From the sequence record DRR723986_4815: a stretch of DNA of 64,000 nt; one strand, written 5' to 3'. Under the pieces are notes generated by a model. That model did not search any database. It was not told the DNA's origin and saw only the letters and a program-made list of their open reading frames with translations. Positions within the stretch are counted from its first letter, which is position 1; every line of letters starts with the position of its first letter. A program made the translations under genes and the position numbers. Positions 6,236-54,836 of this stretch are shown piece after piece.

Positions 6236-7057
6236 CTAGTCGGGTTCGCAATTCCACGTCTCAAGCAACTGCTCAACGACTTGCATCAACTTAGGGCCCG
6301 CTGAATTGCCGATGTCGACTACTTCGTCGTGCGATGTCGCAACGGGCACGATTGTTGAAGCAACGTTGGTAATCACGGAGAACCCAGCAACTCGCATTCC
6401 TAGTTTCCGTGCTTGCAATGCTTCAGCGGAGGTGCTCATGCCAACTGCATCGCCCCCCAGCGAGCGAAACATTGCGTACTCAGACCGAGTTTCATAAGTT
6501 GGCCCAAGTGTTGCGATGTAAGTTCCCTGGTGCATGGTGACGCCATGCTTTCTTGCGATCGATAGGGCTCGCTGAACGGTTGCGTAATCGTATACGGCCG
6601 CCGGCGTCATGACTCCATGTCCTGACTCGCTTGCAGTTGTGTCCCACAGGAAGTCAATCTGGCTATCGATGGCCATCAAGTCGCCCTGCAGGTAACGTCC
6701 ATTCAAACCACCTGCCGCGTTGGTTACGATCAGATTTGTTGCACCGAGCGCCGCCATGACTTGGACCGGAAAACGCACGTGCAGGTTCGACCAGCCTTCA
6801 TATCGGTGGGCCCGGCCCTGCATTAGCACAACGGGTAGGCCGGACAGGAAGCCTAGAATGAGCCGACCTGCGTGGCCGCTGGCGTGGACCTGCGGGAAAC
6901 CCGGAATGTCTTCGTAAGGGATACTGGTAGGATGCTCGACGGCTTCGGCCAATCCACCCAAACCGCTGCCGAGGATGATTGCAACGGCTGGTTGGTGAAG
7001 TCGGATGTTTAGTATTGCATCGCGAGCGGCGTCAACGGATTGAGTTTGGTTTGCCAT
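6236..7057 (-). CDS. punA: purine nucleoside phosphorylase, trimeric family, Asn-type
   Basis: IILGSGLG, GHAGRL, GRAHRYEG, TNAAGG, GPTYET, VGMST, SVITN. Start at ATG 7057. Confidence 0.9.
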   Translation of the reverse strand: MANQTQSVDAARDAILNIRLHQPAVAIILGSGLGGLAEAVEHPTSIPYEDIPGFPQVHASGHAGRLILGFLSGLPVVLMQGRAHRYEGWSNLHVRFPVQVMAALGATNLIVTNAAGGLNGRYLQGDLMAIDSQIDFLWDTTASESGHGVMTPAAVYDYATVQRALSIARKHGVTMHQGTYIATLGPTYETRSEYAMFRSLGGDAVGMSTSAEALQARKLGMRVAGFSVITNVASTIVPVATSHDEVVDIGNSAGPKLMQVVEQLLETWNCEPD

Positions 7058-7194
7058 CAGAACGCCAAGCCCTTTCAAGCTGCTGGCAGTTGGCCGTTAG
7101 AAGGTGCTTCGCGGCTTGGCAGTCCTCGGGGCAGCGGCACTGCGCCAGACGACTGCTTGGCCGCGCAGTCGACTTTCCGATCCGTCCCCAATCG

Positions 7195-8028
7195 TTACGA
7201 GTTGGCTTTCTCGTGCTCAAGGATGCCGGTCACCATAGCTCGCAAACTGGGTTCGGCTGCACCGGCCGTTGCGATAATTTTGTCCACGTTGGCTGGTTCT
7301 AGCGCGTCCGGAAGGCACATGTCGGTGATCACCGAAAATGCGACTGTTCGCAATCCCGCGTGAACAGCCGTGATGACTTCGGGGACGGTGGACATGCCAA
7401 CCACATCAGCGCCGATGGTTCTGAGGAACCTGTATTCGGCACGTGTTTCGAGATTGGGACCCGCTACCGCAACGAAAACGCCCTTGTGAGCAACGATGTC
7501 GTTTTTCCGTGCGATTCCAAGCGCTGCATCGACTAGTTTTAAGTCGTATGGTTCGCACATATCAGGGAATCGTGGGCCAAGGCGATCGTCATTGATACCG
7601 ATAAGCGGGTTGTCGCCCATCAGGTTGATATGATCTTCGATAACGACGATGTCGCCGTCGCTAAAATACGGATTCATTCCGCCGGCCGCATTGGATGCGA
7701 TCAGCAGTTCCGCTCCCATGGCCTTCATAACGCGTACGGGAAGCGTTATCTGCTTCAGCGGATAACCCTCGTACATATGAAAACGGCCTTCCATGGCCAT
7801 TACCGGCAACCCGCAAAGATTGCCGCATACCAACCGTCCACGGTGGCTGGTCGCCGTTGATTTCGGAAAATTAGGAATCGCTTCGTATTCAATCGAAGCT
7901 TCCACGTCTATCTGCTCGGCCAATGGGCCTAGGCCGGTTCCAAGAATGATTCCGGCATGCGGAGTCTTATCCCAAGACTTGCGGATTTCTGCACAAGCTT
8001 CTTCAATTTGGCCGAAGAGTTCCAGCAT
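7195..8028 (-). CDS. purine nucleoside phosphorylase, trimeric family, Asp-type paralogue
   Basis: IILGTGLG, GRFHMYEG, SNAAGG, GPRFPDM, GPNLETRAE, VGMSTVPE, SVITD. Confidence 0.92.
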   Translation of the reverse strand: MLELFGQIEEACAEIRKSWDKTPHAGIILGTGLGPLAEQIDVEASIEYEAIPNFPKSTATSHRGRLVCGNLCGLPVMAMEGRFHMYEGYPLKQITLPVRVMKAMGAELLIASNAAGGMNPYFSDGDIVVIEDHINLMGDNPLIGINDDRLGPRFPDMCEPYDLKLVDAALGIARKNDIVAHKGVFVAVAGPNLETRAEYRFLRTIGADVVGMSTVPEVITAVHAGLRTVAFSVITDMCLPDALEPANVDKIIATAGAAEPSLRAMVTGILEHEKANS

Positions 8029-12185: not shown

Positions 12186-12468
12186 AGCTTTATTCCTTGT
12201 GATTGTGTCTTTTGCGACTTGTTGCTCTTCCGTCTGGTGACCAGTAATCGGTCGCGGCTGAGCGAGAAATGCGAATGTTAATTTCGGGCAGCTAGTGGCG
12301 TCCATTTGCTCGCTGGCACCGCCTAGTGGTGGTCCTGTGTGCGAGTTCATCGCAGTGGGAGACTTCTTCAATTGTTAACAGTTCAGGGACTTCGTCTATA
12401 GCTGCAAGTGACGATCATGTTGACTCTCAACTGTCCTTGAATCCTGAAATTCCTGTTGGAGGCGTACT

Positions 12469-13515
12469 ATGCGCACGAAATCGCGGCCAGCCTTTACGCT
12501 GGTTGAACTGTTGGTGGTTATCGCCATTATCGGCATTCTGGTTGGCCTGCTTTTGCCTGCCGTCCAGGCAGCTCGGGAAGCTGCACGCCGAATGCAGTGT
12601 TCGAACAACCTCAAGCAAATGGGACTCGCGCTGCTCAACTACGAGAGCACTTTCAAGCGGTTCCCGCTGGCGATCATGAGCCACCCGGAACGTAACTGCA
12701 GCAATGGTCCCGACTGCGGTAGTTCTCGCTACGACGATGACGGCTTTGGCTGGCAAGCGGCAATTCTGCCTTACATCGAGCAAGGCAATCTTTACAACCA
12801 ACTGCAGACGATTGTCATGCCCGACGGTCGTCCCCTGCCCTACGGCACATACGGGGCGCTTGAGATTTACGCGGACGTCGCAGGTCGTGGAAATCCAATT
12901 CCAGGTGGTGAAACGGAAATTCCTTCTTATCTGTGTCCAAGCTCCGCTATGCCGACGGTTGTGCCAAACGAGTTTGGTATTCCAGGTGCGACCGCAGGAA
13001 GTATCGTTGGACGAGATCAAGCCGTCGGCTATGGAACCAGTAGCTACAAGACTGCAGGCGGAAGCTGCCTTGGTGATTTTGGCTTGATGCACAAGCACAA
13101 CGAGAGTCGCGAAGGTGGGCGTAGGATCGCCAGCGTGACTGACGGAACCTCGAACACTCTTGCCGTCTGTGAGTCGGTTTATGTTACCGGCAGCACCTCG
13201 GTCCGCTGGGGTGGTGGGGCGACACCGGACAACCCAGGCGTTGTTCAAGACTGGCCAATTTGGATCGGAGCACCTGGCGACGACGAAAGTGTTCGAACCA
13301 ACGGTCGCACCAATCGCCCTATCAATGCTCGCACAACTCCCAACAACATGTTTGATGCAATCGGTGATGACTGTGCATTCAGCTACCACACAGGTGGTGC
13401 TCAGTTCTCGTTTGTCGATGGTTCGGTTCACTTCCTGAGTGAGAATCTCGACATGGAAACGTACTGCAACCTGCACGACATGCGGGACGGCAATGTGCTA
13501 GGCCCTTGGGAGTGA
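12469..13515 (+). CDS. DUF1559 prepilin-type N-terminal cleavage/methylation protein
   Basis: AFTLVELLVVIAIIGILVGLLLPAVQAAREAARRMQCSNNLKQ, TDGTSNT and C-terminal H-X9-DG (YHTGGAQFSFVDGSV). GGAGG RBS. Confidence 0.95.
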   Translation: MRTKSRPAFTLVELLVVIAIIGILVGLLLPAVQAAREAARRMQCSNNLKQMGLALLNYESTFKRFPLAIMSHPERNCSNGPDCGSSRYDDDGFGWQAAILPYIEQGNLYNQLQTIVMPDGRPLPYGTYGALEIYADVAGRGNPIPGGETEIPSYLCPSSAMPTVVPNEFGIPGATAGSIVGRDQAVGYGTSSYKTAGGSCLGDFGLMHKHNESREGGRRIASVTDGTSNTLAVCESVYVTGSTSVRWGGGATPDNPGVVQDWPIWIGAPGDDESVRTNGRTNRPINARTTPNNMFDAIGDDCAFSYHTGGAQFSFVDGSVHFLSENLDMETYCNLHDMRDGNVLGPWE

Positions 13516-13566
13516 TCTCGGGCCGATTGCTTGAACTTTATAAAGTTATCTCAGGTGAGGTTTGAA

Positions 13567-14022
13567 GTGAAAACGAAGCTTTTTGGCTGGGTCGCCCTGG
13601 CAGTATGTCTGGCCGCCGTTTCGGGGTGCGGTGGAATCGAGAAATTCGACACCGCTCCGACAAAAGGTGTTGTTATGTGCAACGGCAAGCCCGTTGCGGG
13701 CGCCATTGTGTTCTTCGAGCCGTTGAAGACAGCCGACAGTGGTTTGGTCGGAAAGTCTGCGGTTGCGGTGACCGATGCCAACGGTGAATTCGTTTTGACC
13801 ACCTACGATGATGGAGACGGGGCAGTTGTCGCTCGTCACCGTGTTCGCGTTGGTGCACCTGAGGTGAGTGGTTGGGAGTGCGATTGCCAGACCAATTCAG
13901 AGTTCGATCTCATGGAAGTTGATATCACGGTTGACGGTGATAACAACTACACAATTGAACTTCCGAAGAAGGATCGTCGCACGCGTTCGCTTGACGATGA
14001 TCCGGATGAAGATGAAGACTAG
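13567..14022 (+). CDS. carboxypeptidase-regulatory-like lipoprotein (usual DUF1559 partner)
   Basis: Lipobox VSG-C, GVVMCNGKPVAGAIVFFEP, TDANGEFVLTTYDDGDGAV and an acidic tail. GTG start after GAGG. Confidence 0.85.
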   Translation: MKTKLFGWVALAVCLAAVSGCGGIEKFDTAPTKGVVMCNGKPVAGAIVFFEPLKTADSGLVGKSAVAVTDANGEFVLTTYDDGDGAVVARHRVRVGAPEVSGWECDCQTNSEFDLMEVDITVDGDNNYTIELPKKDRRTRSLDDDPDEDED

Positions 14023-14128
14023 TCGCAATTTGTTGTGATGGTCTTACTGCTTAGCCCCTGCGGCGCGATTGCTTCGGGGGCAAAGCTCGTGTTCTCGTTG
14101 GCGTCTTTTTGGGCGGAATTTTCGCATC

Positions 14129-15637
14129 ATGGACACCTTCCCTAACGACTCGACGGCGGATGATTCTGGCTTCAGAGGCGTCATTGCCAGTTGTCAGTCG
14201 TATTACAGAGTTGCATTCAAGCCGGTAGACAATTCCAGCATTACGTTCTTTCGCATTGCGTTTGGGCTGATGATGGCGGCCTGGGCTTGGGATTACCTGC
14301 AGTCGGGGCGAGTCACGGAGCTTTACGCCACACCGGAGTTTCACTTCAGTTACTTCGGTTTTGGTTGGGTGACCGCGGATCCTCCTTGGGGGATCTACAT
14401 CCACTTCTTGATGATTGCCGCAGCGGCGTTGGCCGTTGCTGCTGGGTGGATGTACCGCATCTCGGCAACCGTCTTGGCGTTGTTGTTTACCTACTTTTTC
14501 TTGATCGAGCGAACCAACTACCAGAACCACTACTACCTGCTAATGCTGTTCTGCTGGTGGCTGCCGCTTTTGCCGCTACATAGAAACGTTTCTCGCGATG
14601 CAGCGGTTGGCCGGGTCGAGCGCTCGCAGACGACACCTGCTATTGTGCGGTGGATACTGTTGTTCCATGTGGCAGTGCCATATTTCTTCGGGGGCGTCGC
14701 AAAACTGACCACCGACTGGCTCTTGGGTCAGCCGTTGGGAGTGATGCTCTCTCGATTGGGTCAGTTTCCGGTCGTTGGGCAGTGGTTGGTGTGGGAGCCG
14801 ACGGCCATGTTGTTCGGGTACTTTGCCTTGTTCTTCGACCTTGGAATCGTTCCCGCGCTGTTGTGGCGGAAAACGAGGGCAGTTGCTTACTGCTTCGCCC
14901 TACTCTTCCACTTGGGGAATTCGATATTCTTCAGTATCCATGTGTTCCCTTGGTTTATGATTGTCGCTACGACGCTATTTTTCGAGCCTGATTGGGTGCG
15001 ACGAGCAATGGGGGGCAAAGCGGTTGAATCTGCGCAGCAATGGGCGGTCTCGAAAACGGTTTTTGCGAGAACTGCTGCCGCTTGCATAGTCGTTTACTGC
15101 GTGTTCCATTGCGTCTGGCCGCTTCGGCATAACTTGTACGTCGGCGAGACGAGCTGGAATGAGCGTGGCCATGTATTTGCATGGCGGATGATGTTGCGTG
15201 GAAAAGAGGTCGGGATCGGTTACGCTCTACGCGATCCGAGCAACGGGCGAATTGTCAATGTCGACCACAAGCAATTTGTTGCTGCTGAGCAGGCGGAGAA
15301 GTTTCCGCGCGATCCCGAGATGATCTTGCACATGGCACACTTTATCGCGGACAAGTTCGAGGGAGATACCGGTCGGCGTCCGGAAGTGTATGCATTCGCG
15401 CTGGCGAGTCTTAATGGGAGAAAGCCCGAGTTCTTAGTTGACCCGAACCAGGATTTAGCATCAGTACCTAGAGGGATCTACTTCCACCGCGACTGGGTAC
15501 CGCCCGTGACCGAGCCGCTGCGGTGGCCGGCGTGGGATATTCCCGTGCAGCAGTGGCGAGACCACGTCGAAATGCCAGAAATCAAATTCTTAGAAGACAT
15601 GAAGAAACAAGCTCAGGAGCAATCAGTTGAAAGCTAA
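14129..15637 (+). CDS. HTTM-domain / vitamin K-dependent gamma-carboxylase-like membrane protein
   Basis: PVDNSSITFFRIAFG, YQNHYYL, YFFGGVAKLTTDWL, FHLGNSIFFSIHVFPW, FAWRMMLR, SLNGR...VDPNQDL, with several TM helices. Confidence 0.9.
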   Translation: MDTFPNDSTADDSGFRGVIASCQSYYRVAFKPVDNSSITFFRIAFGLMMAAWAWDYLQSGRVTELYATPEFHFSYFGFGWVTADPPWGIYIHFLMIAAAALAVAAGWMYRISATVLALLFTYFFLIERTNYQNHYYLLMLFCWWLPLLPLHRNVSRDAAVGRVERSQTTPAIVRWILLFHVAVPYFFGGVAKLTTDWLLGQPLGVMLSRLGQFPVVGQWLVWEPTAMLFGYFALFFDLGIVPALLWRKTRAVAYCFALLFHLGNSIFFSIHVFPWFMIVATTLFFEPDWVRRAMGGKAVESAQQWAVSKTVFARTAAACIVVYCVFHCVWPLRHNLYVGETSWNERGHVFAWRMMLRGKEVGIGYALRDPSNGRIVNVDHKQFVAAEQAEKFPRDPEMILHMAHFIADKFEGDTGRRPEVYAFALASLNGRKPEFLVDPNQDLASVPRGIYFHRDWVPPVTEPLRWPAWDIPVQQWRDHVEMPEIKFLEDMKKQAQEQSVES

Positions 15638-17009
15638 TCGTCGTTCTTTTGTAGGTGGATTGGTCAGAGGCGTCACTGCGGCTTCGATCGTCGGCGCGTT
15701 TTCAGAGTTCAACGCCCGGGCTGCGGTCAGCAGCAGTAACACTGTTGGCTTTGGGCCCCTGAGTCCAGCAAAATGTCAGGAAACCGGCTTGGAGTTGATC
15801 CAGTTGCCCGAGGGCTTTCGCTACCTGTCGTACGGTTGGACCGGTCAGCCGCTATCGGATGGTTCACCAACGCCGAGCGACCACGATGGTATGGCAGTCA
15901 TCGATGAGCAGGATGGCGTGGTTACGATCTGCCGCAATCATGAGATCGGTAGCCCACAAAAAAACAAGAACGAGCGCCAGAGTATCTACGATCGTTTTGC
16001 TGGTGGCGGGTGCAGCAACCTGAAATTTGACCGAAAGCAAGAGAAGTTTGTTTCCGCCGAGCTTAGTTTGGCGGGTACTGCGAAGAACTGCGCCGGTGGA
16101 GCGACACCCTGGAAGTCATGGCTCAGTTGCGAAGAGACGGTCGATGACCCAACGACGACGCTCGAAGACGATGAAGTCAATACATTCACTCGCCCGCATG
16201 GTTTTGTTTTTGACGTGCCCGCGGCCGGGACAAGCAACCAAGATCCAAAGCCGATCGAATCACTCGGTCGCTTTGTTCATGAAGCTGTTTGCATTGATCC
16301 AGCAAGTGGCACTGTGTACCTGACGGAAGATCGCGGGACGGCTGGTCTGTATCGGATGGTACCCAATACTCCGGGCGATTTGCACGCTGGTGGTAAGTTC
16401 CAGATGCTTGCTTGTGAAAAGACTAGTGATGTGCGAAAGGGTGTGCAGGAAGGTTTTCAAGCCGACGTTCACTGGGTGGACATCGAAGACAGGTTGCGAC
16501 CTCACTCCCCAGGTACACAGGACTGTTTGGGAGTATATTCGCAAGGTAAGGCTCTTGGAGCGTTGACCTTCGCCCGGCTCGAGGGCTGCGCGATGCACGA
16601 CGGCAAAGTCTTCATAACTGCAACTAGCGGAGGCGACGCTTCCTCTGGACAGGTTTGGATGTATGACCCAAAGGCTGAACGATTAAGTTTGGTGTACGAA
16701 TCTCCCGCGTCGGAAGTGCTGGACATGCCCGACAATATGGCGGTCAGTCCACGTGGCGGTATTCTGCTGTGCGAAGACGGTGATTACATTCCGCAGCGAC
16801 TGCAAGTCTTGACCGAGAGTGGGACGCTGTTTCCTTTTGCGGCCAACAATATGCGACTGAACGGCGTGTGGGGACATACTGGAGATTTTCGTGGCAGCGA
16901 GTGGGCTGGTGCGACCTTCACTGCCGATGGTGAGTGGCTGTTTGTCAATCTGCAAACACCCGGTGTGACGTTGGCGATCACCGGACCATGGCAAAATTCC
17001 CTGATTTAG
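15627..17009 (+). CDS. phoX: PhoX-family (DUF839) alkaline phosphatase, Tat-exported
   Basis: NRRSFV Tat motif, LPEGFRY, HDGM, RNHE, NCAGGATPWKSWLSCEE, GRFVHEA, PDN, CED, SEWAGATF. TTG start overlaps the upstream stop, with AGGAG RBS. Confidence 0.9.
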   Translation: MKANRRSFVGGLVRGVTAASIVGAFSEFNARAAVSSSNTVGFGPLSPAKCQETGLELIQLPEGFRYLSYGWTGQPLSDGSPTPSDHDGMAVIDEQDGVVTICRNHEIGSPQKNKNERQSIYDRFAGGGCSNLKFDRKQEKFVSAELSLAGTAKNCAGGATPWKSWLSCEETVDDPTTTLEDDEVNTFTRPHGFVFDVPAAGTSNQDPKPIESLGRFVHEAVCIDPASGTVYLTEDRGTAGLYRMVPNTPGDLHAGGKFQMLACEKTSDVRKGVQEGFQADVHWVDIEDRLRPHSPGTQDCLGVYSQGKALGALTFARLEGCAMHDGKVFITATSGGDASSGQVWMYDPKAERLSLVYESPASEVLDMPDNMAVSPRGGILLCEDGDYIPQRLQVLTESGTLFPFAANNMRLNGVWGHTGDFRGSEWAGATFTADGEWLFVNLQTPGVTLAITGPWQNSLI

Positions 17010-17089
17010 ACTCTGTTGGCGAGTCATTGAAGTAATGTAGCGTTCGCGAAGGTTCGTCGGGCGGTCTGTTTGATAATGAGGGGTGTGGG

Positions 17090-18565
17090 ATGACAGAAGT
17101 GTTTGGGTTCGCGGGGCGACTGCAGCAATTGACTCGTTCGTTGTTCGCCGTCGGCTTCTTCGTGGCGGCTCTGGTAGTAGCAAGTCGTTGTTCCGTAGCG
17201 CACGACGGTGATCATTCGCATGATGTTCCGAAGGTGGGCCACGCGGAGATGTACGCGCCGACCGCGATTCCCGATCGCGTAGTGCTGACCTGGGAAGGTG
17301 ACACGGCAACGTCGCAGTCAGTTACCTGGCGTACAAGCACTCAAGTCAAGAAGTCCTGGGCCGAAATCGCGATTGCTGGTGATGGGCCAGCGTTTCCTCA
17401 AACGGCAAAGCAAGTGCCAGCAGAAACAACGTTCCTGAAAACGGACATCAACGAAGCCCATTTTCATACCGCTCGGTTTGAGAAGCTGACTCCAGGTACC
17501 GTCCACGCGTATCGCGTTGGTGATGGTACCAACTGGAGTGAGTGGTTCCAGTTCAGAACTGCGCCAGCCGAGTTTCAGCCCTTCTCGTTCGTGTACTTCG
17601 GTGACGCTCAGAATAACCTACGTTCGATGTGGTCCAGGGTTATTCGTGAAGCGCATCGAGATGCACCCAAGATGGCTTTCTTGCTGCACGCTGGCGACCT
17701 TGTGAACAAGGCCGAGGCTGACGGCGAGTGGGGCGAGTGGTTCGGGGCGGGTGCATGGCTGAATGCGATGATTCCAAATATCGCTGTTCCAGGCAACCAC
17801 GAGCACGCGAAGAATAAAGATGGTACTCGTCGCCTGACGCACCATTGGAAGCCAACGTTTGCGTTTCCAACCAACGGTCCGGCCGGATTGGAAGAATCCT
17901 GTTACACGTTGACGTATCAGAATCTTCGGATCATTTGCCTGAACAGTACGTCGATGCAGGAAGAACAAGCAAAGTGGATGGAAGGGGTGTTGAAGGACAA
18001 TACGCATCCTTGGGTCGTTTGTTCGTTCCACCATCCGCTGTTTTCCACGGGCAAGGACCGAGACAATCCTGAACTGCGGGCGATGTGGAAACCAATCTTT
18101 GATCGCTACAAGGTCGACTTGGTGCTGCAGGGGCACGATCATACATACGGAAGAACCGGATTTGTTGTTCCCGACGACGGTGTGAGTCAAATGAAGGATG
18201 GTTCTGCTGCTTCGGGCACGGGCAAGGACGACTCTGAGCTGGTTGCGCATCGCAACGTTGCATCGGGAGTGCAGAACTTTGACGAGAAGGCAGGTACCGT
18301 TTACGTGGTGTCGGTCAGCGGGCCCAAAATGTACAACAACAATCGCAAGTGGTTTATGCGAAAGCTGGCCGAGGATACGCAGCTCTATCAGATTATCCGC
18401 GTCCACGAACGCCGGCTGATCTTCGAAGCTCGAACCGCCACAGGTAAGCTTTATGACTCATTCGAGCTTGCCAAGCGTCCCGGTGAAATCAACGAGCTAA
18501 TCGAGACCGGAGCCGCGATGCCCGAGCGGCTTCGCCCGGAAGAGCCCGAATCCGACAAAGAGTAG
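17090..18565 (+). CDS. purple acid phosphatase-like metallophosphoesterase with N-terminal FN3 domain
   Basis: Signal peptide, YRVGDGTNWSEWFQFRTAP, and FGDAQ / GDLV / GNHE / FHHP / GHDH metal motifs. Confidence 0.9.
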   Translation: MTEVFGFAGRLQQLTRSLFAVGFFVAALVVASRCSVAHDGDHSHDVPKVGHAEMYAPTAIPDRVVLTWEGDTATSQSVTWRTSTQVKKSWAEIAIAGDGPAFPQTAKQVPAETTFLKTDINEAHFHTARFEKLTPGTVHAYRVGDGTNWSEWFQFRTAPAEFQPFSFVYFGDAQNNLRSMWSRVIREAHRDAPKMAFLLHAGDLVNKAEADGEWGEWFGAGAWLNAMIPNIAVPGNHEHAKNKDGTRRLTHHWKPTFAFPTNGPAGLEESCYTLTYQNLRIICLNSTSMQEEQAKWMEGVLKDNTHPWVVCSFHHPLFSTGKDRDNPELRAMWKPIFDRYKVDLVLQGHDHTYGRTGFVVPDDGVSQMKDGSAASGTGKDDSELVAHRNVASGVQNFDEKAGTVYVVSVSGPKMYNNNRKWFMRKLAEDTQLYQIIRVHERRLIFEARTATGKLYDSFELAKRPGEINELIETGAAMPERLRPEEPESDKE

Positions 18566-18631: not shown

Positions 18632-18654
18632 TGGCCCAGTTTGGGCCATCTTTT
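18632..18654 (+). terminator. probable intrinsic terminator after the phosphatase gene run
   Basis: Perfect TGGCCCA-GTT-TGGGCCA stem followed by TCTTTT, about 67 nt after the stop. Could alternatively be a 7-3-7 operator for amt. Confidence 0.45.
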
Positions 18655-18867
18655 CGGCAGTGGCTCTGGCGCTGTGCAGAAATGCTCAGCCAACAGGAAT
18701 AATGCCCAGCTTTCGCGCTTGCCTGCCCTTTTCTGCACCTCGCATTTCTCCACTGGCGTCCAACTCTGACCAGGAAGCTCATGGGTGGGGGTGGGGGCGA
18801 AGTCAGTTTTGGGGTAAATTTTAGGCCAATTCAGGGGAAGGGGCTGACCCTTCCAGCGTGGTTGCGA

Positions 18868-28892: not shown

Positions 28893-30524
28893 TCACTTTG
28901 CTGATTGTTGATCAGTGATTGATTGCCAGGTGAGATCGAATTTGGCAAGGTACTTCCGCAACCGGTCGGCGTCGTTGGCCTTTTGCTTGGCCAGTCGCGA
29001 CTGGGCGAAGAGCTTTCGTCCTGCCTCAGAAAGTGAATGACTCTTGCGGCAGACAGCAATGACGTCGCTCAACTGGACGAGGTCAAAACGGTCAAGCTGG
29101 CTTGCTTTCTCGGTCGGTAGCACCGACGCAACAGTTTGAATTGCGTTTGCCAGTGAGCCGCCTGCGTCAACTTGGCGATTCTCGCACGCGCCGCGGAGAC
29201 GTACGAGTTCTTGGTCTACGTCGCCTTTGGTGATTCGCCCTGATTCAGCCAGAGTGGCCATTCTCGTGATTGAGCTGCTGAGGTCACGGAAGTTGCCTGG
29301 CCAGGTAGCGGCCGCGCTGGTGGCGTATCGCAAGTAGGCTTCACGAGCTTCTTTGTTGATGGTCACCTTGCGATTTTGTGTCTGCGCGAACCGGTCGAGT
29401 TCAAAGTCGACGTTGGGGTCGATGTCTTCGCGGCGATCGACCAGGCCAGGTAATTCAAATTGCCAGAGGTTGATTCTTGCGAGGAGGTCGTCGCGGAACC
29501 TGCCCGAAGCAACTTCACGTTCTAGGTTCCGATTGGTCCCGCAGATAAGTTGGAAGTCACTCTCGGCGGGATGGTCAGAGCCAACTGGCCAAAACGTTTT
29601 CTCCTCAATGGCCTTTAGTAGCATGGCTTGTTCGTCCAGGCCCAGTTCTCCGATTTCATCCAGGAAGAGTACACCGCCTGATGCAGTCAGAAGCAGGCCG
29701 GCGCGGTCTTGGTCTGCGCCAGTGAACGCTCCTTGTTTGTGGCCGAACAGCGTGGACATGGCTTGTTCGCCACGTAGCGTGGCGCAGTTGACTTCGACAA
29801 ACTGTCCTTCGACCAGATTTCGATTTGCTTTGAGTTTGTAGATTCGTTTTGCAAGGTGACTCTTCCCGGCCCCTGTCGGACCGGTAAGCAAAATTGGTGA
29901 ACGAGTGAGCAAGCAGACCTTTTCAATTTGTTCAATCAGTGCATTGAAGTTCTGGTTCTTGGTCGAGATACCACCCTTCAGCAAGGCGACACTTTGTTGA
30001 ATCTGATCTTGGAAACGCGTCGCCAGGGCATCGTACTTGGAAAGGTCCAAATCGATCGTCTTGATCGTTCCGTGCGCTGGGCCAGTGGATCGCCGCGAAG
30101 GGGATGACTGCAGCAGTTTGCCAGGCAAGTGCCGGGATTCGGTCAGTAGAAAGAGGCAGATCTGGGCTACGTGTGTCCCGGTAGTGATATGAACCAGGTA
30201 GTCTTCTTCGTCGACATCGAACTCGTAGTCGCTAGCGAAGTCGAGCAAGGAAGCAAAGACTTCTTCAAAGTCCCATGGATCGCGGAAGCTGGTTTCGTGA
30301 GCTCGGACCAGTGTCTCTGGCGAGGTTGCTTCGATGTCCGTTTGAATCTGTGCGAGCAGCTTCTCGTGCTTCGCGTCGTAGAGCAACTCAAGCCGGTCAA
30401 CAACGAAATCCTCGTGCTGGCAGATCGCGACACTCGGCCGCCATGCCAGCCAGCGATCACCTCGTTTGGGCGACCTATCGAGAGTCGGCCCCAGTAATCC
30501 AATGACAACAGTAGGTTTAGGCAT
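28893..30524 (-). CDS. rtcR: RNA repair transcriptional activator RtcR (CARF-like domain + sigma54 AAA+)
   Basis: RWLAWRPSV, DPWDFEEV, YLVHITTGTHVAQIC, GPTGAGKS, GAFTGA, NDADRLRKYLAKF. Confidence 0.96.
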   Translation of the reverse strand: MPKPTVVIGLLGPTLDRSPKRGDRWLAWRPSVAICQHEDFVVDRLELLYDAKHEKLLAQIQTDIEATSPETLVRAHETSFRDPWDFEEVFASLLDFASDYEFDVDEEDYLVHITTGTHVAQICLFLLTESRHLPGKLLQSSPSRRSTGPAHGTIKTIDLDLSKYDALATRFQDQIQQSVALLKGGISTKNQNFNALIEQIEKVCLLTRSPILLTGPTGAGKSHLAKRIYKLKANRNLVEGQFVEVNCATLRGEQAMSTLFGHKQGAFTGADQDRAGLLLTASGGVLFLDEIGELGLDEQAMLLKAIEEKTFWPVGSDHPAESDFQLICGTNRNLEREVASGRFRDDLLARINLWQFELPGLVDRREDIDPNVDFELDRFAQTQNRKVTINKEAREAYLRYATSAAATWPGNFRDLSSSITRMATLAESGRITKGDVDQELVRLRGACENRQVDAGGSLANAIQTVASVLPTEKASQLDRFDLVQLSDVIAVCRKSHSLSEAGRKLFAQSRLAKQKANDADRLRKYLAKFDLTWQSITDQQSAK

Positions 30525-30634
30525 AGCTAAAATTATAACAAGCTCGAAGAATATCTAGCAATCGGCCGTGGTTAGTTTTGGGTGGTTTTGCGTAAGTTGT
30601 TGTGCAGAAACGGTTTGTGGTTTCTGAGCAAGTT

Positions 30635-30650
30635 TGGCACACTAGCTGCA
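30635..30650 (+). promoter_or_regulatory. sigma54 -24/-12 promoter of rtcBA
   Basis: TGGCAC-ACTAG-CTGCA with exact GG-N10-GC spacing, between divergent rtcR and rtcB. Inverted repeat CAGAAAC...GTTTCTG lies just upstream at 30605-30626. Confidence 0.85.
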
Positions 30651-30876
30651 GATGTAGCTGTGCCAGATACGGCAGACACATTATGAATGTCGCTCGATTC
30701 TCCGAATCGTGTGCGTTTTCGACTCACAGTGTCGAACGATACTGCGGGCGTCGATCATGTTGGGCTCGGAGGGAACCGCACGCTAGCGCGATGCGGCTGA
30801 TGGGTTCCAATGCGGCGCGCCATCTGCATTCAGAAACGAAACGGCTGCCGGTAGACTGGCTAATCAGGAGAAAACC

Positions 30877-32424
30877 ATGACGACGACGCAACAGCCCGCA
30901 AACAGCTCACCCGAATGCATGACCGCCGAAGAGACGGCGCGACGACTTGGTCGATTCGTGGCGACCGGTGAGGCAACGGCGATGTTGCCGACGCAATCAA
31001 CCAAGCCGATTACGGTAGTCGGTACCGAGGCGATCCGAGCGACCTTTGACGACAAGTGTATTCAGCAAGCGATCAATTCTCGCTTGGCTCCCGGCGTTAC
31101 CGACGTGGTGCTGAATCCAGACGCGCACTGTGGATATGGTGCGCCGGTTGGATGTGTCATGGTTTCGCCAACGCACATCTATCCCGGACCTGTCGGAGTG
31201 GACATCAAGTGCTCGATGAGTTTGCTGCAGTTGGATATTCCCGCTGAAGAGGTCGACGATCGTCGCGTGCGTCGCGAGCTTATTTCGGCTATCTGTCAGC
31301 GTACGCCAACTGGTGCGGGCCGTGGTCAGCGAAGTGTGCCGAAGGCTCGTCACGTCAACCGAACGATTGGACGGCAGGTCGTTGTGGAAGGTGCGAGTGA
31401 ATCGGTCTGCGAGCAACTCGGGATTCCGGCTCATTGGGCAACACGTTGTGAAGACGCGTTTCATGTCGGACACGATGGGACTCCCGATGCTCTGGCGAAC
31501 CGTTTGGACTGGCTCCTTCAGCAGCGCTGGATGGATAACTTCACTAACAAGGTCGCCCAACTGGGGTCCTACGGTGGTGGGAATCACTTTGGCGAGTGCG
31601 AAGTGGTACAAGTTGGCGACGGAGAGCGGGAGCGATCCGTGGCGGAGGCTTTCGGGCTACACGATGGAAAGCTTGCGTTTCTATCGCACTGTGGATCCCG
31701 TGGACTCGGACACAAACTTGCATCAGGGCAATTCAAGACGCTTCAAGGAAAGTTCAAGAAGTGGGATATCCCATTGCCGGGAGAGGATCGTGAGTTGGTT
31801 TACGCGCCGCTTGGGACGCCTGAGGCGAATGCCTACATCGACGATATGTCGCTAGGGGCGAACTTTGCGACGGTGAACCACCTCTTGATCAATGCCCTCG
31901 TTTTGGAAGCATTTCAAGAAGTGATTCCTGGGACGAAGGGAGAGTTGGTCTACTTCATCAGCCACAATATCGCGCGACGTGAGATTGTGGACGGAAAGCG
32001 ATCGTGGGTCCACCGAAAGGGCGCAACGCGTGCTTATCCGGCTGGGCACCCTGGGCTGGCAGAGACACCATTTGCCGATACGGGGCACCCAATCCTTCTG
32101 CCGGGGAACCCGCGTGATGGATCTGCGGTCATGGTGGCTGACCCGGGCGCAGAAAAGTCCTGCTTCAGCGTGAACCATGGTGCGGGTCGCATTATGGGGC
32201 GAAAGCAGGCGATTCGTTCACTTGATCAATCGGTGATCGATTCGGAACTGGATAGTCACGACATCCTAAGCAACTGCCGTCAGTATCCGATGGATGAGGC
32301 GCCAGCAGCTTACAAGGATTTCAATGAAGTGCTTCGGAGCGTCAAGCAAGCTGAACTGGCTAGCGAAGTCGCTCGACTGAAAGCACGATTTGTGATCAAG
32401 GATGGTAGCAAGGCTGATGATTGA
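30877..32424 (+). CDS. rtcB: RNA 2',3'-cyclic phosphate--5'-OH ligase RtcB
   Basis: PDAHCGYG, GVDIKC, GGGNHF, HCGSRGLG, SHN, HRKGATRA, HGAGR, DEAPAAYKD. AGGAG RBS. Confidence 0.95.
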   Translation: MTTTQQPANSSPECMTAEETARRLGRFVATGEATAMLPTQSTKPITVVGTEAIRATFDDKCIQQAINSRLAPGVTDVVLNPDAHCGYGAPVGCVMVSPTHIYPGPVGVDIKCSMSLLQLDIPAEEVDDRRVRRELISAICQRTPTGAGRGQRSVPKARHVNRTIGRQVVVEGASESVCEQLGIPAHWATRCEDAFHVGHDGTPDALANRLDWLLQQRWMDNFTNKVAQLGSYGGGNHFGECEVVQVGDGERERSVAEAFGLHDGKLAFLSHCGSRGLGHKLASGQFKTLQGKFKKWDIPLPGEDRELVYAPLGTPEANAYIDDMSLGANFATVNHLLINALVLEAFQEVIPGTKGELVYFISHNIARREIVDGKRSWVHRKGATRAYPAGHPGLAETPFADTGHPILLPGNPRDGSAVMVADPGAEKSCFSVNHGAGRIMGRKQAIRSLDQSVIDSELDSHDILSNCRQYPMDEAPAAYKDFNEVLRSVKQAELASEVARLKARFVIKDGSKADD

Positions 32425-32570
32425 TCCGTCGTGAGACGGGCGGAATGTCTGCGACACTGGGTGGTTTTGGCCGAGGGTACTCGGGCGACTACCTGGTGTT
32501 GCGGTTCGTTCGGTGTATTTGTTGTTTACACGACCGGGAAAACGCGACTTAGGCGGATACATTGCACACT

Positions 32571-33605
32571 ATGACGGATGCGATACTCATCGACGGTGCC
32601 AAGGGCGAGGGAGGTGGGCAGGTTCTGCGAACGTCGCTCTCGTTGAGTATGTTGACGGGGCGTCCCGTCCGATTAATCAACATTCGTTCCGGGCGCAAGA
32701 AGCCCGGGCTCATGCGGCAGCACTTGACGTGTGTAAAGGCGGCCGCGCAGATATCGTCCGCCAAAGTTCAGGGCGATGCGTTGAATTCGAAAGAGCTGAT
32801 ATTTGAACCAGGGGAAGTAGCTGCTGGCGAGTACTCCTTTCGAATCGGCTCCGCTGGAAGTACGAGCTTGGTTTTGCAGACGGTCTTCCCGGCTCTCGCG
32901 GCCTGCAAGGTGCCCAGCAAGGTGCATCTGGAGGGCGGAACACACAATCCGTTGGCTCCGAGTGCAGACTTCTTAATTGATGTCTTCGCGCCAAGTGCGG
33001 CTCGGTTTGGATTTCCAATTGACGTTGTCCTGCACCGCCATGGTTTCATACCTGCAGGCGGCGGATCGATCAGTGCAACGATTCATCCAGCTAGTGCTCG
33101 CGGCGTGACGCTGCTCCAGCGCGACGGAACGGCGCAGTACTCGTCCAGAGTTCTCCTCTCCCAGTTGGATCGCTCCATCGCCACGCGTGAGATCAAAACG
33201 CTTGTTCGCAGACTGGCGATTGACGAGGATCTGGCCACGATCGAAATGGTTGAGTCCAGTGGGCCAGGGAACGTTGTTCTCGTGGGTGTTCGTTACGATA
33301 ACTGCGCAGAACTGGTTTGCGAGGCTGGGCGGATCGGCATGAAGGCTGAACGAGTTGCCCGGTCGGCAACGGTGGCGCTGCGTAAGTACATTGCCAGCAT
33401 CGCTCCGATTGGCGAGCACTTGGGAGACCAATTGATGTTGCTCGCCGCAATCGCCGCCGGTCAGGGCGAGTCATCAGAGTTGTTGATTCAGCAGTGGACA
33501 AGCCACTGTGAAACGCACCAAATCGTTCTCGAAGCTTTCTTGCCTGTCAGGTTCGAAAGACACGAGCAAGATTCTGCCGTGCGGCTGGTCGTTTCGCCAT
33601 CTTGA
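32571..33605 (+). CDS. rtcA: RNA 3'-terminal phosphate cyclase
   Basis: IDGAKGEGGGQVLRTSL, NIRSGRKKPGLMRQHL, GSTSLVLQ, EGGTHNP, EHLGDQL (adenylylated His). Confidence 0.96.
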   Translation: MTDAILIDGAKGEGGGQVLRTSLSLSMLTGRPVRLINIRSGRKKPGLMRQHLTCVKAAAQISSAKVQGDALNSKELIFEPGEVAAGEYSFRIGSAGSTSLVLQTVFPALAACKVPSKVHLEGGTHNPLAPSADFLIDVFAPSAARFGFPIDVVLHRHGFIPAGGGSISATIHPASARGVTLLQRDGTAQYSSRVLLSQLDRSIATREIKTLVRRLAIDEDLATIEMVESSGPGNVVLVGVRYDNCAELVCEAGRIGMKAERVARSATVALRKYIASIAPIGEHLGDQLMLLAAIAAGQGESSELLIQQWTSHCETHQIVLEAFLPVRFERHEQDSAVRLVVSPS

Positions 33606-36187: not shown

Positions 36188-39100
36188 ATGCAGCCACGTA
36201 AGCGCTTGCGCGGTTCGAAGGTCTCGACGAAGAGTCGCCGTTGCCGGCTGTTTGAACGTCTTGAACCTCGGGTGGTGCTCGCCGCAGGTGTGGCCGTAGC
36301 CGACTTCCAATTCACCAACCATGGGCTGAACGGCCAGACCGAGCTCTTCTCTCGCGACAGCCACGCGGCAAGTGTAGCCAGTGATATCTCGTCGCCATTG
36401 CCTCTTGGTAGTACCGGCAACGGTGAACCTCCGCGTGGGCTCGCGCTTGGAGGTGCCTTCAACGAGACGAGCGAGCCGACACCAGCCAACAATACCTCAG
36501 ACTATTTCACGTTCACCATCGCACCTGAAACGGGGGAGTCGCTGGACCTCCACGACCTGTCGTTTTCGGTGCGACGTAATGATCCTGATTCAAAGAATAG
36601 TTTTGCAGTCTACTTCGACGAAGATCCCGGCGCGAGCGGAGATAACTTTGCTACCAAACTGTTTGCAGGCGTAGTCACCAGCGAAGATCGATTTGAAAGG
36701 TTCACCGTCCCGCTTGAGGGGATTGCGGAGTTCACCGCGCTGACTCAACCGTTCACGTTCCGCTACTACGCCTGGGGTACCGAAGGCGTTGGGACGCAGC
36801 GAATTGATAATGTTCGCGTTCGTGCTGTTGCAGAAACAGTATCATCCAGCGAGTTCGCCTACTATGGCGACAGCGGTCGATTGATCAATCCGCTTGATGC
36901 ACGCGGCAATCGCATTGCAGATTTCTCAGCCGCCGGCTACCACAACGGTGAGCGGCCAATCCCAAACGTTCTCGAACTGGTTGATGCGTCGCGAGTAGTA
37001 CAGGTCGCTCCGGTTGCTGGCGATGACACGGCTCACATCCAAGCTGCCATTGATCAAGTGGCAGCGATGCCGGTCAATGCGTCCGGGTTTCGCGGTGTCG
37101 TGCAGTTGTCGGCAGGCGAGTTTCAGGTCAGTGGCACATTGGAGATCCTTGAAAGTGGAATCCTATTGCAGGGCGCAGGCGATGGTGACGATCCTGCAAC
37201 TAGCACTATCTTGCGAGGAACTGGAACGGAGCAGCGTTCGCTCCTGCGAATCGGTCAGGCCTCTGGGTTTGCTTCCGGAACGGGAGGTAGCCGCAACATA
37301 TTGGACAAGTATGTTCCGGTTGGCGCGACCAGCTTTCGAGTAGACTCCACGACTAACTGGGATGTGGGCGATAAGATCATTGTCCGTCGACCAAGCACTG
37401 CGGAGTGGATTGCAGCGCTTGGAATGGACCAGATACCACCGCGAAGTGATGGTGGAGAAGTCCGGCAGTGGCAAGCGGGCGATTATGACGAGTTATACGA
37501 AAGGGTTATCACGCGGATTGACGGAAACCTGGTGCACATCAATGCTCCGCTTCACTCTGCATTGGACCAGGAGTACGGTGGTGGTACGGCGTTCGAGTAT
37601 GTTTTTCCGCGGATTCGCGAAGTTGGTGTGGAGGGTATTCGTGGTGTGTCAGATTTCGCTTCTGATACGGACGAAGACCATGCTCGCACCTTCATCGAAC
37701 TGCAGGCGGTAGAAGATGCTTGGGTTAAAAATGTCACTGGGCAACACTTTGTTTATGCAACGGTCCACGCAACCGGTCGGTCGATACGAGTTACCGTTGA
37801 TGACGCGGAGAGTCTTGATCCCAAATCGTTGATTACCGGCGCGCGGAGGTATCCGTTCGTAATCGATGGTCAGTTCATCTTGATGCGGAATCTCTACTCA
37901 GAAGAAGGTCGGCATGACTTCGTAAACAACTCGCGGTATCGGAATCGCGGTCCCAACGTTTTCCTTGACGGTGTTGCGGTCAATTCGCATTCGTCCACTG
38001 GCCCACACCAGCGATTTTCGACGGGCACTTTGTATGACACAATCACGACCGACAACGAAACGGAAGCTCGCAACCGTGGCAACTTCGGATCAGGCCATGG
38101 TTGGGGCGGAGCCAACATGGTGTTCTGGAACAATATCGCGACTCGTTACCGCGTGCAGAATCCTCCAACGGCACAGAATTGGCTGATCGGTTCAGTTGGA
38201 ACGATTGTTGACGAGCAGCGTTTCGGCCCTCAGCCGCCGCCGACGGTTGACGCTCACGGAACTCCGATTGACTTCGGTGATCCTAGGAATCCGACAAGTA
38301 GTCTTTACGTTGCGCAGAGAAACAGAGCAGATGACGACAACGCTCTGGGCCTTAGTCGCCGCGAATACGTACTTGGTGATTTTGACCTAGGACAATTTGA
38401 TGGACTGGCAAGTGATGACAGCGTTTTTGTGGATGCCACCTGGATGAGTCAGGTTGCAGGCATCGCTGGAAGTCTTCCTGTCGAAGTCTCGGATCAAAGC
38501 ACCGATGGGCACGTTGTCCCGTTAAGTTTTGAGTTCCCGCTCGGGCAGCAGCAGAGCGTTTTTGCGGCGGTGCTAACGCTTGGGCTTAGGGGCACGGGAG
38601 GGCCAACCGCGGACGATACTTTGTACTTCGATAGTCTGGGTGACGCTCGTACCTTGCAATCACTGGGTGCTAGTCAGCTTGCAGTTGGAACCACCACGCC
38701 GCTGACTGTTGAACTGACCGGCGAAGATCTAGTCTTGCTGGACGACGGACTGCTCAACCTGGCAATCTCTGGAAACACCGCCCTCGATTGGGCGCATCTA
38801 GATCTGCGCGTCGGTATTCAGCAATCGCTTTCTTTGGATCTGTCGGCAGACACGGTTCGTGAAAATGGTAGCGTTTCAGGAAGAGTCACCATCGATCGAG
38901 CTGTGGACTATCCGGTCGTAGTTTCGTTAACGAGCAGCAACATCCAAGAGGCGTCGGTGCCGGCGACCGTAGAGATTCCCGCCGGGCAAACTCAATCGGC
39001 CGAGTTCGCGATTCTTGGTGTTGATGAGGGGCGATTCGATGCAGTTGAATCTGTCACCATCACTGCGACCGCCGCGCAGCACACGCTGGCAAGCAGCACG

Positions 39101-51377: not shown

Positions 51378-52163
51378 ATGAATACTTCAACAAAACCTGC
51401 CGCCGATGAATCAAGCGTCGGCGATTCGTCGACATCCAGTCCGCGCGAAGGTGTTGATAAGACAGGTCACAAAGTACAGGAGATGTTTGCCCAGATCGCT
51501 CCGCGTTACGACTTGATGAATCACGTGCTGTCGCTGGGGATCGATATTCGGTGGCGGCACCGAGTGATTAAGGAGATGGGCTTTCGCGATTCTACATCGT
51601 CGGATCCGGTTTTGGATTGTTGCACGGGAACGGGAGATCTTGCGATCCTGATTGCGAAGGCAGCGGCAGGGAGGTTCGAAGTTGAAGCAACAGATTTTTG
51701 TGCGCCGATGCTTGAGCAGGCTGAGCGAAAGCGTGTCTCGGCGGGGCTAGAGGGAGTTAAATTCCAGGAAGCAGATTCGATGAGCCTGCCGTTCCCCGAC
51801 GACCACTTCCAAGCCGTTACGTGTGCATTTGGCCTGAGGAATATCCAGGATACTGAGCAAGGCCTCAAAGAAATGGCCCGGGTTTGCAAGCCGGGCGGAC
51901 AAGTCGGCATTCTTGAGTTTTCGCATCCAACTGCACCGGTACTGAAGCAGAGCTATCAAGCTTACTTCAAGCACGTTCTGCCGCGAATCGGCCAAGCTGT
52001 GGCCCGCAACGATAAATCTGCCTACGAGTATTTGCCCAACAGCGTCAGCGAGTTTCCAAGTGGCCAAGCTTTAGCAGAGGTGATGAAGAATTGTGGTTAC
52101 CGAAGCGTCGATTTGTTTCCGATGACTCTTGGAGTTGCCACTCTGTATCTCGGCCGGGTTTAG
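51378..52163 (+). CDS. menG: demethylmenaquinone methyltransferase
   Basis: [50 protein letters not shown]. Confidence 0.95.
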
Positions 52164-54362: not shown

Positions 54363-54836
54363 GGACGCGATCCGGTGACTTTGGTGTTGGATAAAGTGTG
54401 TTCGCTGGCATTGGTGCGAGCGTGGGCGACGACTGTTACGCTCGATCGGCGGTAGGCGATTGTCTCTGCTGCGGTGTTGCCCTAAAAAAAAGACGACAGT
54501 CGAGTCGCAACTGCGGTGAGGCACGATCTGTGGCTGTTATGATCCTTGGCAGGCTCTGCCGTCGCAATGCATTATCGTTGTAGCTTCGTTTTCGGCGAGT
54601 CCTGATCGGAGCTCAGTCTTGGTACAGGATAGAGCAGTATGCAGTCAGGGGCTGCAGGTCGGCTGAGTCAGTATGCTCGTTCGCCGCAGTTAGCGTACTT
54701 CTGTCGTCCATTTGGTAACCGCTATTGTGATGTGTTTGTAACGTGGTTCGGTATAGCCTTGGGCTGGCGTGGTTGGATTCGCTTAGAGTGACTCGCAATT
54801 GTATGGCGTTCGGGCACTTTGGTTTTGGGGTTATCT

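Follow-up and report, generated by a model that had tools for sequence, protein, structure and literature searches.

Homologues of the vitamin K-dependent carboxylase (VKGC) are found in bacteria, and to our knowledge their role has been unsettled since their discovery. One such homologue is encoded among five genes at 12469-18565 of DRR723986_4815, a stretch of 64,000 nt that is referred to here as the window. Its neighbours encode a pilin-like DUF1559 protein, a small lipoprotein, a PhoX alkaline phosphatase, and a metallophosphoesterase that resembles the purple acid phosphatases (PAPs). This leads to the question of what the enzyme does in such company, and whether the five genes belong together at all. 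As described below, the conserved unit is the trio of DUF1559, lipoprotein, and VKGC genes, to which phosphatases are frequent yet optional attachments, and the locus is very probably a phosphorus-scavenging envelope module built around this constant trio.

The genes and the signals assigned to them are arranged as follows.

12469 to 13515, plus strand: prepilin-type DUF1559 (H-X9-DG) protein, 348 aa; Pfam N_methyl and DUF1559/SBP_bac_10 (5.8e-51)
13531 to 14022, plus strand: small lipoprotein, 163 aa; lipobox VSGC with Cys33
14129 (ATG) to 15637, plus strand: HTTM/VKGC homologue, 502 aa; Pfam HTTM (2e-72) and VKGC_lumenal_dom (7.5e-34)
15615 to 15619, plus strand: AGGAG sequence within the end of the VKGC gene, 7 nt 5' of the PhoX start
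15627 to 17009, plus strand: short-form PhoX alkaline phosphatase, 460 aa, TTG start; Pfam PhoX PF05787 (4.2e-70), twin-arginine motif RRSF
17090 to 18565, plus strand: exported PAP-like metallophosphoesterase, 491 aa; Pur_ac_phosph_N (3.2e-20) and Metallophos (3.1e-16)
18632 to 18658, plus strand: terminator-like hairpin, a 7-bp stem with five G-C pairs followed by a T-run, 67 nt past the last stop codon

The preliminary description of this locus had reported five co-directional genes, an overlap of the HTTM stop codon with the phoX start around an internal AGGAG, and a terminator-like hairpin behind the last gene. All of these features were found again, and Pfam confirmed the five families. 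The VKGC stop codon TAA at 15635-15637 lies beyond the TTG start of PhoX, which gives an overlap of 11 nt; the other spacers measure, in order, 15 nt, 46-106 nt, and 80 nt, the second depending on whether the VKGC protein starts at the ATG or at an alternative TTG at 14069 that yields 522 aa. A scan of the window for hairpins returned 5 sites against 8.0 in shuffled sequences, so that its position is the sole argument for the hairpin at 18632-18658. The group lies between a divergent ABC-F gene on its upstream side and an ammonium transporter gene on its downstream side. The head-to-tail layout fits a putative single operon.

Whether such an arrangement is kept in evolution was investigated by scanning one genome per species with the VKGC protein as bait. 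This gave 69 loci at 37-84% identity, nearly all of them labelled Planctomycetota, with one labelled Chitinophaga and two just "bacterium". Neighbours were counted by tblastn and clustering of open reading frames (ORFs), and 68 loci carry the VKGC gene. Of the 66 loci with sufficient flank, 62 have the lipoprotein gene immediately upstream of the VKGC gene and in the same orientation. The four exceptions are a locus in which the genes overlap and were missed by the rule (L015), two in which they are adjacent yet divergent (L030 and L041), and one with a gene fragment (L068). The DUF1559 gene in turn is found upstream of the lipoprotein gene in 56/59 loci, and the in-frame start of the VKGC gene overlaps the lipoprotein stop in 12/63. 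The linkage of the three genes persists through rearrangement, since the order is VKGC-DUF1559-lipoprotein in L091 and L092 and the genes are divergent in L093 and L094.

An independent sample consisted of 301 genomes drawn evenly across Planctomycetota, 23 of which contain a VKGC homologue. Among the 26 places retrieved, the DUF1559 and lipoprotein genes adjoin the VKGC gene in six (L090-L094 and L096), in three arrangements, and genome G001 provided a seventh case. The remaining 20 places, which have no DUF1559-lipoprotein pair, hold mostly distant homologues that are 31-40% identical to the protein of the window, or 41-43% in two cases. When the 301 genomes were searched with a profile of the lipoprotein, the best four matches (158-181 bits) all adjoin a VKGC gene, and they are followed by one at 111 bits. 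The set of genes recurs both in related genomes and in the even sample of the phylum, and the grouping of the five therefore goes beyond chance; conservation of the neighbourhood across Planctomycetota was the check that the preliminary description had proposed. Its grouping of HTTM with phoX, PAP, and DUF1559 stands for the trio only, as the PhoX and PAP-like genes turned out to be facultative: PAP-like copies occur alone elsewhere and four trio loci have no phosphatase in their vicinity. Matches in a protein atlas were confined to unnamed Planctomycetota clusters, and a literature search found no description of the module. In the relevant passages of PMC12647623, a "Planctomycetia bacterium" VKGC orthologue is named in an alignment legend only.

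The distant Planctomycetota homologues are often located beside very large ORFs (L095:683-7972, L102:3757-7833, L103:10195-15660), and one large ORF in such a position encodes a protein of 2429 aa with dockerin and lectin-like matches. Extra fused domains were looked for in the long VKGC homologues of other clades, and none were recognised. The sample suggests that different VKGC clades have different protein partners.

The VKGC homologue itself has the two-domain build of the animal enzyme, with PF05090 at residues 50-309 (2e-72) and PF22777 at residues 337-481 (7.5e-34) in the 522-aa numbering. A phmmer search against the Protein Data Bank (PDB) returned human GGCX chains only (5.7e-24). Native GGCX numbering was read from this alignment, with the offset verified on Leu394, His404, and Lys218. 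The window protein is identical to GGCX at Asn159, His160, Lys218, Trp223, Asp263, His287, Phe299, Trp390, Trp399, and Met401, and all ten residues are invariant in 67/67 orthologues. According to PMC12647623, Asn159 and His160 contact the Glu carboxylate, Lys218 is the catalytic base and acts with Trp223 and Asp263, Phe299 forms the CO2 site, and Met401 is also given a role. The counterpart of Lys218 is Lys192 of the 502-aa form. Catalytic or substrate-contact roles are thus described for seven of the ten residues, and the passages concerned in PMC12647623 assign none to His287, Trp390, and Trp399. The alignment to human GGCX suggested in the preliminary description therefore bears out its motif assignments, as NHYYL, YFFGGVAKL, FHLGN, and AWRMM are present in the translation and align to His160, Lys218, His287, and Trp399/Met401, respectively. 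Also present is the equivalent of GGCX segment 374-418, which is essential for carboxylation and missing from epoxidase-only viral homologues (PMC13486548). The substrate-positioning residue Arg436 corresponds to Lys in 38, Arg in 26, and Ser in 3 of the 67 orthologues. Taken together, the VKGC homologue is likely an active quinol-dependent enzyme that works on the periplasmic side; all its conserved neighbours are exported.

The first of these neighbours belongs to a large family described as being of unknown function (PMC10632474, PMC2754498). The window protein shows the features of that family, namely the PF07963 cleavage/methylation motif, PF07596, and the C-terminal H-X9-DG motif; in NCBIfam it matches the H-X9-DG model TIGR04294 (5e-9) and the prepilin cleavage model TIGR02532, and its N terminus matches the GspG model (2e-8). 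The prepilin cleavage site, encoded at window 12469-12500, reads RPA/FTLVE with Ala at position -1, as in L001; the family consensus at this position is Gly. Genome G001 alone has about 90 DUF1559 matches, and roughly 7 of 20 DUF1559 genes sampled there precede a gene that encodes a small lipoprotein from the same fold family. The window protein is 50-93% identical to the trio copies of its relatives, compared with 27-35% for other DUF1559 copies in those loci. At about 40 positions, many of which are occupied by Asp, Glu, Arg, or Asn, the residue conserved in at least 90% of the trio copies is seldom found in 20 paralogues. Among these are the trio-specific invariant acidic residues Asp90, Glu212, Asp261, Asp272, Glu273, and Asp300/Asp301. 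Judged by these comparisons, the DUF1559 protein of the trio is a specialised orthologue group tied to the VKGC homologue.

The lipoprotein was modelled with AlphaFold2 as a beta-sandwich of residues 45-143 (pLDDT 86.4) followed by a C-terminal tail of low confidence. Its Pfam and fold matches are weak and of the transthyretin/CarboxypepD_reg type, and a Foldseek search of the model against the PDB gave no match at E <= 1e-3, with weak hits to transthyretin, CnaB, and Ole e 1-like beta-sandwiches only. The tail, KKDRRTRSLDDDPDEDED, is encoded at about nt 13966-14019 and is first basic and then acidic, ending in DDDPDEDED. The same basic-then-acidic extension past the last strand is seen in the orthologues, with a median length of 22 residues and a median of 6 Asp plus Glu (61/68 orthologues matching the anchor pattern). 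Seven paralogous DUF1559-partner lipoproteins of G001, on the other hand, stop no more than about 10 residues past the last strand and have no tail. An additional invariant Cys and a shorter loop that contains an invariant CxC also set the VKGC-linked lipoproteins apart from the paralogues. The tail is not acidic in the four divergent trio variants L091, L092, L096, and L116, whose acidic cluster is located in an internal loop instead. Measured against the paralogues, an acidic tail is specific to the VKGC-linked lipoproteins. No pattern connected the residue at the Arg436 position with the Asp/Glu content of the tails. Hydrophobic-acidic dipeptides occur in 60/68 tails, compared with 49 after shuffling, but this count was not relied on, since the 25 residues used include the last strand. 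A predicted complex of the VKGC homologue and the mature lipoprotein, made without alignments, gave ipSAE values of 0.00 and 0.00 and is evidence neither way.

In contrast to the trio, the hydrolases vary. A PAP-like gene lies within 2.2 kb downstream of the VKGC gene in 41/55 loci. The nearest solved structure to its product is the sweet potato PAP 1xzw (3.1e-10), and the PAP N-domain PF16656 (3.2e-20) and Metallophos PF00149 (3.1e-16) were both detected. The six metal-ligand positions in the motifs GD, GD, GNHE, H, and GHDH are invariant in 43/43 orthologues. The chromophore Tyr ligand of Fe(III) in GDxxY, however, is replaced by Asn (GDLVN in the window; Asn in 42/43 orthologues). The label "purple acid phosphatase" of the preliminary description could for this reason not be kept, although the family features are otherwise present, and the protein is called PAP-like here. 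Behind its signal sequence, in the region encoded at window 17090-17230, stands a His-rich HDGDHSHD, possibly an extra metal-binding segment. In the even sample, 12/301 genomes encode a PAP-like protein, seven of them together with a VKGC homologue.

PhoX is rarer, with about 15 of 69 loci. In 5 loci it separates the VKGC gene from the PAP-like gene, in 8/47 it precedes DUF1559, and 2 loci contain a short remnant. The remnants (L005:9768-9953 and L024:9451-9606) comprise the last 50-60 residues only and directly follow the VKGC gene, which suggests that PhoX was lost from this position in the two lineages. The window PhoX matches the Pseudomonas fluorescens PhoX structures weakly (6.5e-5), with only the NCAGGxTPW..CEE segment aligning, and on sequence criteria is a divergent short form. 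A motif for twin-arginine translocation (Tat) was found in 13/14 clustered PhoX orthologues.

Many loci extend further downstream with genes for a 243-aa protein, a DUF1501 protein, a PPC-domain protein, and a DUF1549 protein, found in 31, 33, 25, and 23 loci, respectively. The 243-aa exported protein belongs to no Pfam family and shows a weak disaggregatase-repeat match. The window carries no member of this extension. In addition, a beta-propeller phytase (PF02333, 8.7e-36) was found in 4 trio loci at three different positions. Examples are listed below.

L003:6065-12412 and about 30 other loci: downstream extension with the 243-aa exported protein, DUF1501, an 820-aa PPC-domain protein, and DUF1549/PSCyt2
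L028:6787-7845 and L054:1392-2447: phytase (PF02333) between the lipoprotein and VKGC genes
L026:9642-10553: phytase (PF02333) after the VKGC gene
L093:14547-15479: phytase after or fused to the PAP-like gene, within one long ORF at 13131-15503; a possible PAP-phytase fusion

Four phosphohydrolase families, PAP-like, PhoX, DUF1501, and beta-propeller phytase, are thereby attached to the trio. PhoX and the beta-propeller phytases are Ca2+-dependent enzymes.

A possible link to phosphate limitation came from the upstream regions. The octamer TTCTTAAC is over-represented upstream of the trio in the relatives, and CTTAAC-N5-CTTAAC, with at most one mismatch per unit, occurs in 13/53 upstream regions, at 11-bp spacing and on the coding strand only. 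At every control spacing from 6 to 17, and likewise on the opposite strand, there was at most 1 upstream pair. Over the 1.29 Mb of all loci, 40 pairs were found at the 11-bp coding-strand spacing against 5-18 for the other spacings or strand; a single conserved stretch within the final part of the PAP-like gene accounts for five of the 40, which were discounted. Fourteen loci have such sites in front of DUF1559, whereas in L005 and L007 they precede the 243-aa gene, in L055 and L061 PhoX, and in L038 the PAP-like gene. The same tandem motif was found upstream of pstS in 3/6 genomes, and in one of these three, the closest relative of the window, the pstS box reads TTGTTAAC-acg-TTCTTAAC. The cyanobacterial SphR Pho box is CTTAACCT, with units of 8 bp and a linker of 3 bp (PMC1906773); the repeats of the relatives are alike in architecture and nearly so in sequence. 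A search of five genomes with a three-unit Pho-box pattern was uninformative, with two matches, one upstream of a gene of the major facilitator superfamily and one near accA. In the window the following element was found, within a block conserved with L001.

12372 to 12379, plus strand: single TTGTTAAC octamer, 90 nt 5' of the DUF1559 ATG, identical to the first unit of the pstS box of the closest relative

The phosphorus-scavenging operon claimed in the preliminary description is therefore upheld in part, by the recruitment of four phosphohydrolase families and by the repeats in 13/53 relatives, but the promoter in the window has no tandem box.

How could a carboxylase serve such a module? 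In the proposed mechanism phosphate limitation would switch the operon on, and the hydrolases, here the Tat-exported PhoX and the tyrosine-less PAP-like enzyme, would free phosphate outside the cytoplasm. The lumenal domain of the VKGC homologue would lie in the periplasm, and the enzyme would carboxylate the acidic residues of a partner exported there, using menaquinol, O2, and CO2 or bicarbonate. This partner would most likely be the lipoprotein tail, which would acquire malonate-type, Ca2+-chelating side chains. These could hold calcium-bound phosphate substrates or feed Ca2+ to the Ca-dependent hydrolases PhoX and phytase. A Ca-chelating product is attractive because these enzymes need Ca2+. 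There is about an even chance that this picture is right as a whole, that is, a Planctomycetota-specific module for phosphorus scavenging with the trio as core, varying hydrolases, induction by phosphate limitation, and carboxylation of an exported partner, most likely the tail. The tail as such is a tentative choice of substrate. It is ranked first because it is the sole compositional feature that separates the linked proteins from their paralogues, and because MloH of the Streptomyces malonomycin pathway, which carboxylates an aspartyl residue (Law et al. 2018, cited in PMC12647623 and bioRxiv 10.64898/2026.08.19.745780), shows that the family can carboxylate Asp. The most specific version of the idea is doubtful. 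In it, the tail of the starvation-induced lipoprotein would be carboxylated to gamma-carboxyglutamate (Gla) and/or beta-carboxy-Asp and would grip Ca2+, calcium phosphate, or Ca-phytate like osteocalcin, and the pilin-like partner and the hydrolases would mine mineral-bound phosphorus.

Several observations weigh against this picture. The tails mix Asp and Glu, and GGCX carboxylates Glu. The tails are conserved in composition only and not in sequence, with 179 Asp and 176 Glu in total; at least 4 acidic residues among the last 12 are found in 42/68 tails and fewer than 4 in 26/68, and among the last 25 residues three tails have no Glu and two no Asp. In the enzyme, the Glu-contacting Tyr395 is replaced by His in 67/67 orthologues and the preceding Leu394 by Gly, although this Gly-His pair is common to most other Planctomycetota VKGC clades and so is not peculiar to the module. 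The vitamin K epoxide reductase VKOR (PF07884) was detected in just one of five module genomes. As most bacterial VKORs are without epoxide reductase activity (PMC4555120), its scarcity is a caveat and not a refutation. The module genes gave no Gla-domain match in Pfam, where no dedicated propeptide or wider Gla-domain search was made. The main neighbourhood counts are conditional on the VKGC bait. All six further PAP-like places that were retrieved stand alone (6/6), and four trio loci with long flanks (L002, L024, L030, and L031) have unrelated neighbours and no phosphohydrolase within 8 kb. The idea that HTTM matures the PAP-like enzyme was rejected on the same grounds, the solitary copies elsewhere and the four trio loci without one within 8 kb. 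With respect to regulation, the box is present in just 13/53 relatives and in none of the PhoX-leading clade save L055 and L061. No 11-bp-spaced pair occurs on either strand anywhere in the window, and with 4 octamers of the TTSTTAAC type against 2.1 expected the single octamer is not significant.

The enzyme may instead act on another exported protein, either the DUF1559 protein before it folds or assembles or one encoded elsewhere, with the tail as a docking or regulatory element or a charged spacer. The DUF1559 gene is linked as tightly as the lipoprotein gene, its product has the invariant subfamily-specific acidic residues, neither the sequence nor the Asp/Glu content of the tail is conserved, and the distant Planctomycetota clades adjoin large secreted proteins instead. 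Yet a flexible Glu-rich segment is missing from the DUF1559 protein, whose conserved acidic residues lie in a folded domain, and the acidic segment of the lipoprotein is still the sole compositional distinction of the linked proteins, so that we regard another protein substrate as unlikely. Nor does a role outside protein chemistry seem probable. The homologue would then act as an epoxidase of menaquinol, and under phosphate stress its strong base or redox chemistry would be put to another use, such as the modification of a lipid or small molecule. This would agree with MloH, which acts on a small-molecule (polyketide-peptide) intermediate (PMC12647623; bioRxiv 10.64898/2026.08.19.745780), with the giant-virus epoxidase-desaturase fusions proposed to drive lipid desaturation (PMC13486548), with the replaced Tyr395 and the variable Arg436 position, and with the failure to find an epoxide-recycling VKOR in 4/5 module genomes. 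The lumenal domain, the 374-418 segment, and Asn159/His160 are kept, however, unlike in the viral proteins, and the conserved neighbours are all exported, with no linked lipid or secondary-metabolite gene.

Two further explanations concern the neighbours rather than the chemistry. In Pseudomonas aeruginosa a Pho-regulated type II secretion system (Hxc) exports the alkaline phosphatase LapA. By analogy, the DUF1559 protein and the lipoprotein could form a pseudopilin-plus-pilotin-like exporter of periplasmic phosphatases, with the VKGC homologue as an accessory maturation factor. The match of the N terminus to the GspG pseudopilin model together with the prepilin cleavage domain is in line with this, as is the constancy of the trio beside varying hydrolases, and a Tat-exported PhoX would need a further step from the periplasm to the outside. 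An export device is nevertheless quite unlikely, given that about 90 DUF1559 matches occur per genome, most of those examined lying apart from exported enzymes, that neither a secretin nor an ATPase gene is linked, and that in four trio loci a hydrolase to export is missing within 8 kb. Finally, the five genes could be chance neighbours, a generic DUF1559-lipoprotein pair beside unrelated VKGC and phosphatase genes. Such pairs are indeed very common, as the sampled genes of G001 illustrate, but the linked DUF1559 and lipoprotein sequences are distinct orthologue groups that are kept across families and rearrangements, start and stop codons overlap in 12/63 loci, and the range of 37-84% identity argues against one recently transferred island. 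Chance is a very improbable explanation, largely refuted by the rearranged loci, the lipoprotein profile search, and the counts over 68 loci.

The locus shares features with several known systems and differs from each of them. Human GGCX has the same build of HTTM and lumenal domain and the same ten residues, and its active side is extracytoplasmic, as is predicted by homology for the window protein. It is longer, with 758 aa against 502 aa, and the homologue differs in having His395, Gly394, and Lys/Arg at 436. GGCX substrates carry a propeptide and a Gla domain, whereas the candidate in the window is a short mixed Asp/Glu tail; in addition, the quinone would here be menaquinone, VKOR was mostly not found, and the gene lies in a putative phosphatase operon. 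MloH is likewise a full-length bacterial VKGC homologue, and its activity on Asp is relevant to Asp-rich tails, but it belongs to a polyketide/non-ribosomal-peptide cluster and has a small-molecule substrate, whereas the window locus has no biosynthetic genes and its neighbours are exported proteins. A VKGC orthologue also exists in Leptospira (PMC4555120). Like the window protein, it is a bacterial orthologue of the animal enzyme without a known natural substrate. Its activity was reportedly studied by Rishavy and colleagues in 2005. We know of no conserved partner genes reported for it, whereas the type found in the window has a conserved partner set and a physiological context.

The HTTM-only systems SdpB/SdpA, DUF5819-HTTM, and linaridin LinG, as presented in bioRxiv 10.64898/2026.08.19.745780, also place an HTTM enzyme beside small exported or membrane partners, on or with which it presumably acts. 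In these, however, the lumenal domain is missing or is a separate DUF5819 protein, and the partners are peptide precursors and not a lipoprotein and a pilin-like protein. Generic Planctomycetota pairs of DUF1559 (PF07596) and lipoprotein genes have the same order and families as the trio, whose members differ in being specialised and tied to VKGC. With the phosphatase operons of Pho regulons the locus shares a Tat-exported PhoX, and the 11-bp-period CTTAAC units of the relatives occur there as at pstS; the window differs by having no tandem box and by three additional non-hydrolase genes.

Elsewhere in the window, futalosine-pathway genes for menaquinone are present, namely MenG/UbiE (51378-52163), UbiX (52524-53198), and MqnE (53220-54524). 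The preliminary description had noted menaquinone genes in the window; they are there, but as unlinked housekeeping genes 33-40 kb away. A full RNA-repair set is located at 28893-33605, where the gene for the sigma-54 activator RtcR (4.5e-236), on the minus strand, diverges from those for an RtcB-family ligase and the RtcA 3'-phosphate cyclase. At 6236-8028 on the minus strand are two tandem purine-nucleoside phosphorylase paralogues that match the same NCBIfam model (5.1e-81 and 1.5e-105), and an ORF of 1829 aa at 36188-41677 has no NCBIfam match.

In the passages of the cited literature that deal with them (PMC12647623, bioRxiv 10.64898/2026.08.19.745780), MloH is the only bacterial VKGC homologue with a named substrate. 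The module offers a conserved pair of exported partners, one with a partner-specific acidic segment, together with a likely inducing condition, phosphate limitation. It is carried by Schlesneria sp. T3-172 (L022/L116), which is labelled a complete genome, and the question of what bacterial VKGC homologues do thereby becomes testable. For the large DUF1559 family, with its roughly 90 matches per genome, the locus provides a defined physiological context. It also points to a possible way of reaching calcium-bound phosphorus by means of proteins, one that gene surveys of the phosphorus cycle would overlook. If the tail is indeed carboxylated, it would become the first protein identified as a natural substrate of a vitamin K carboxylase from bacteria.

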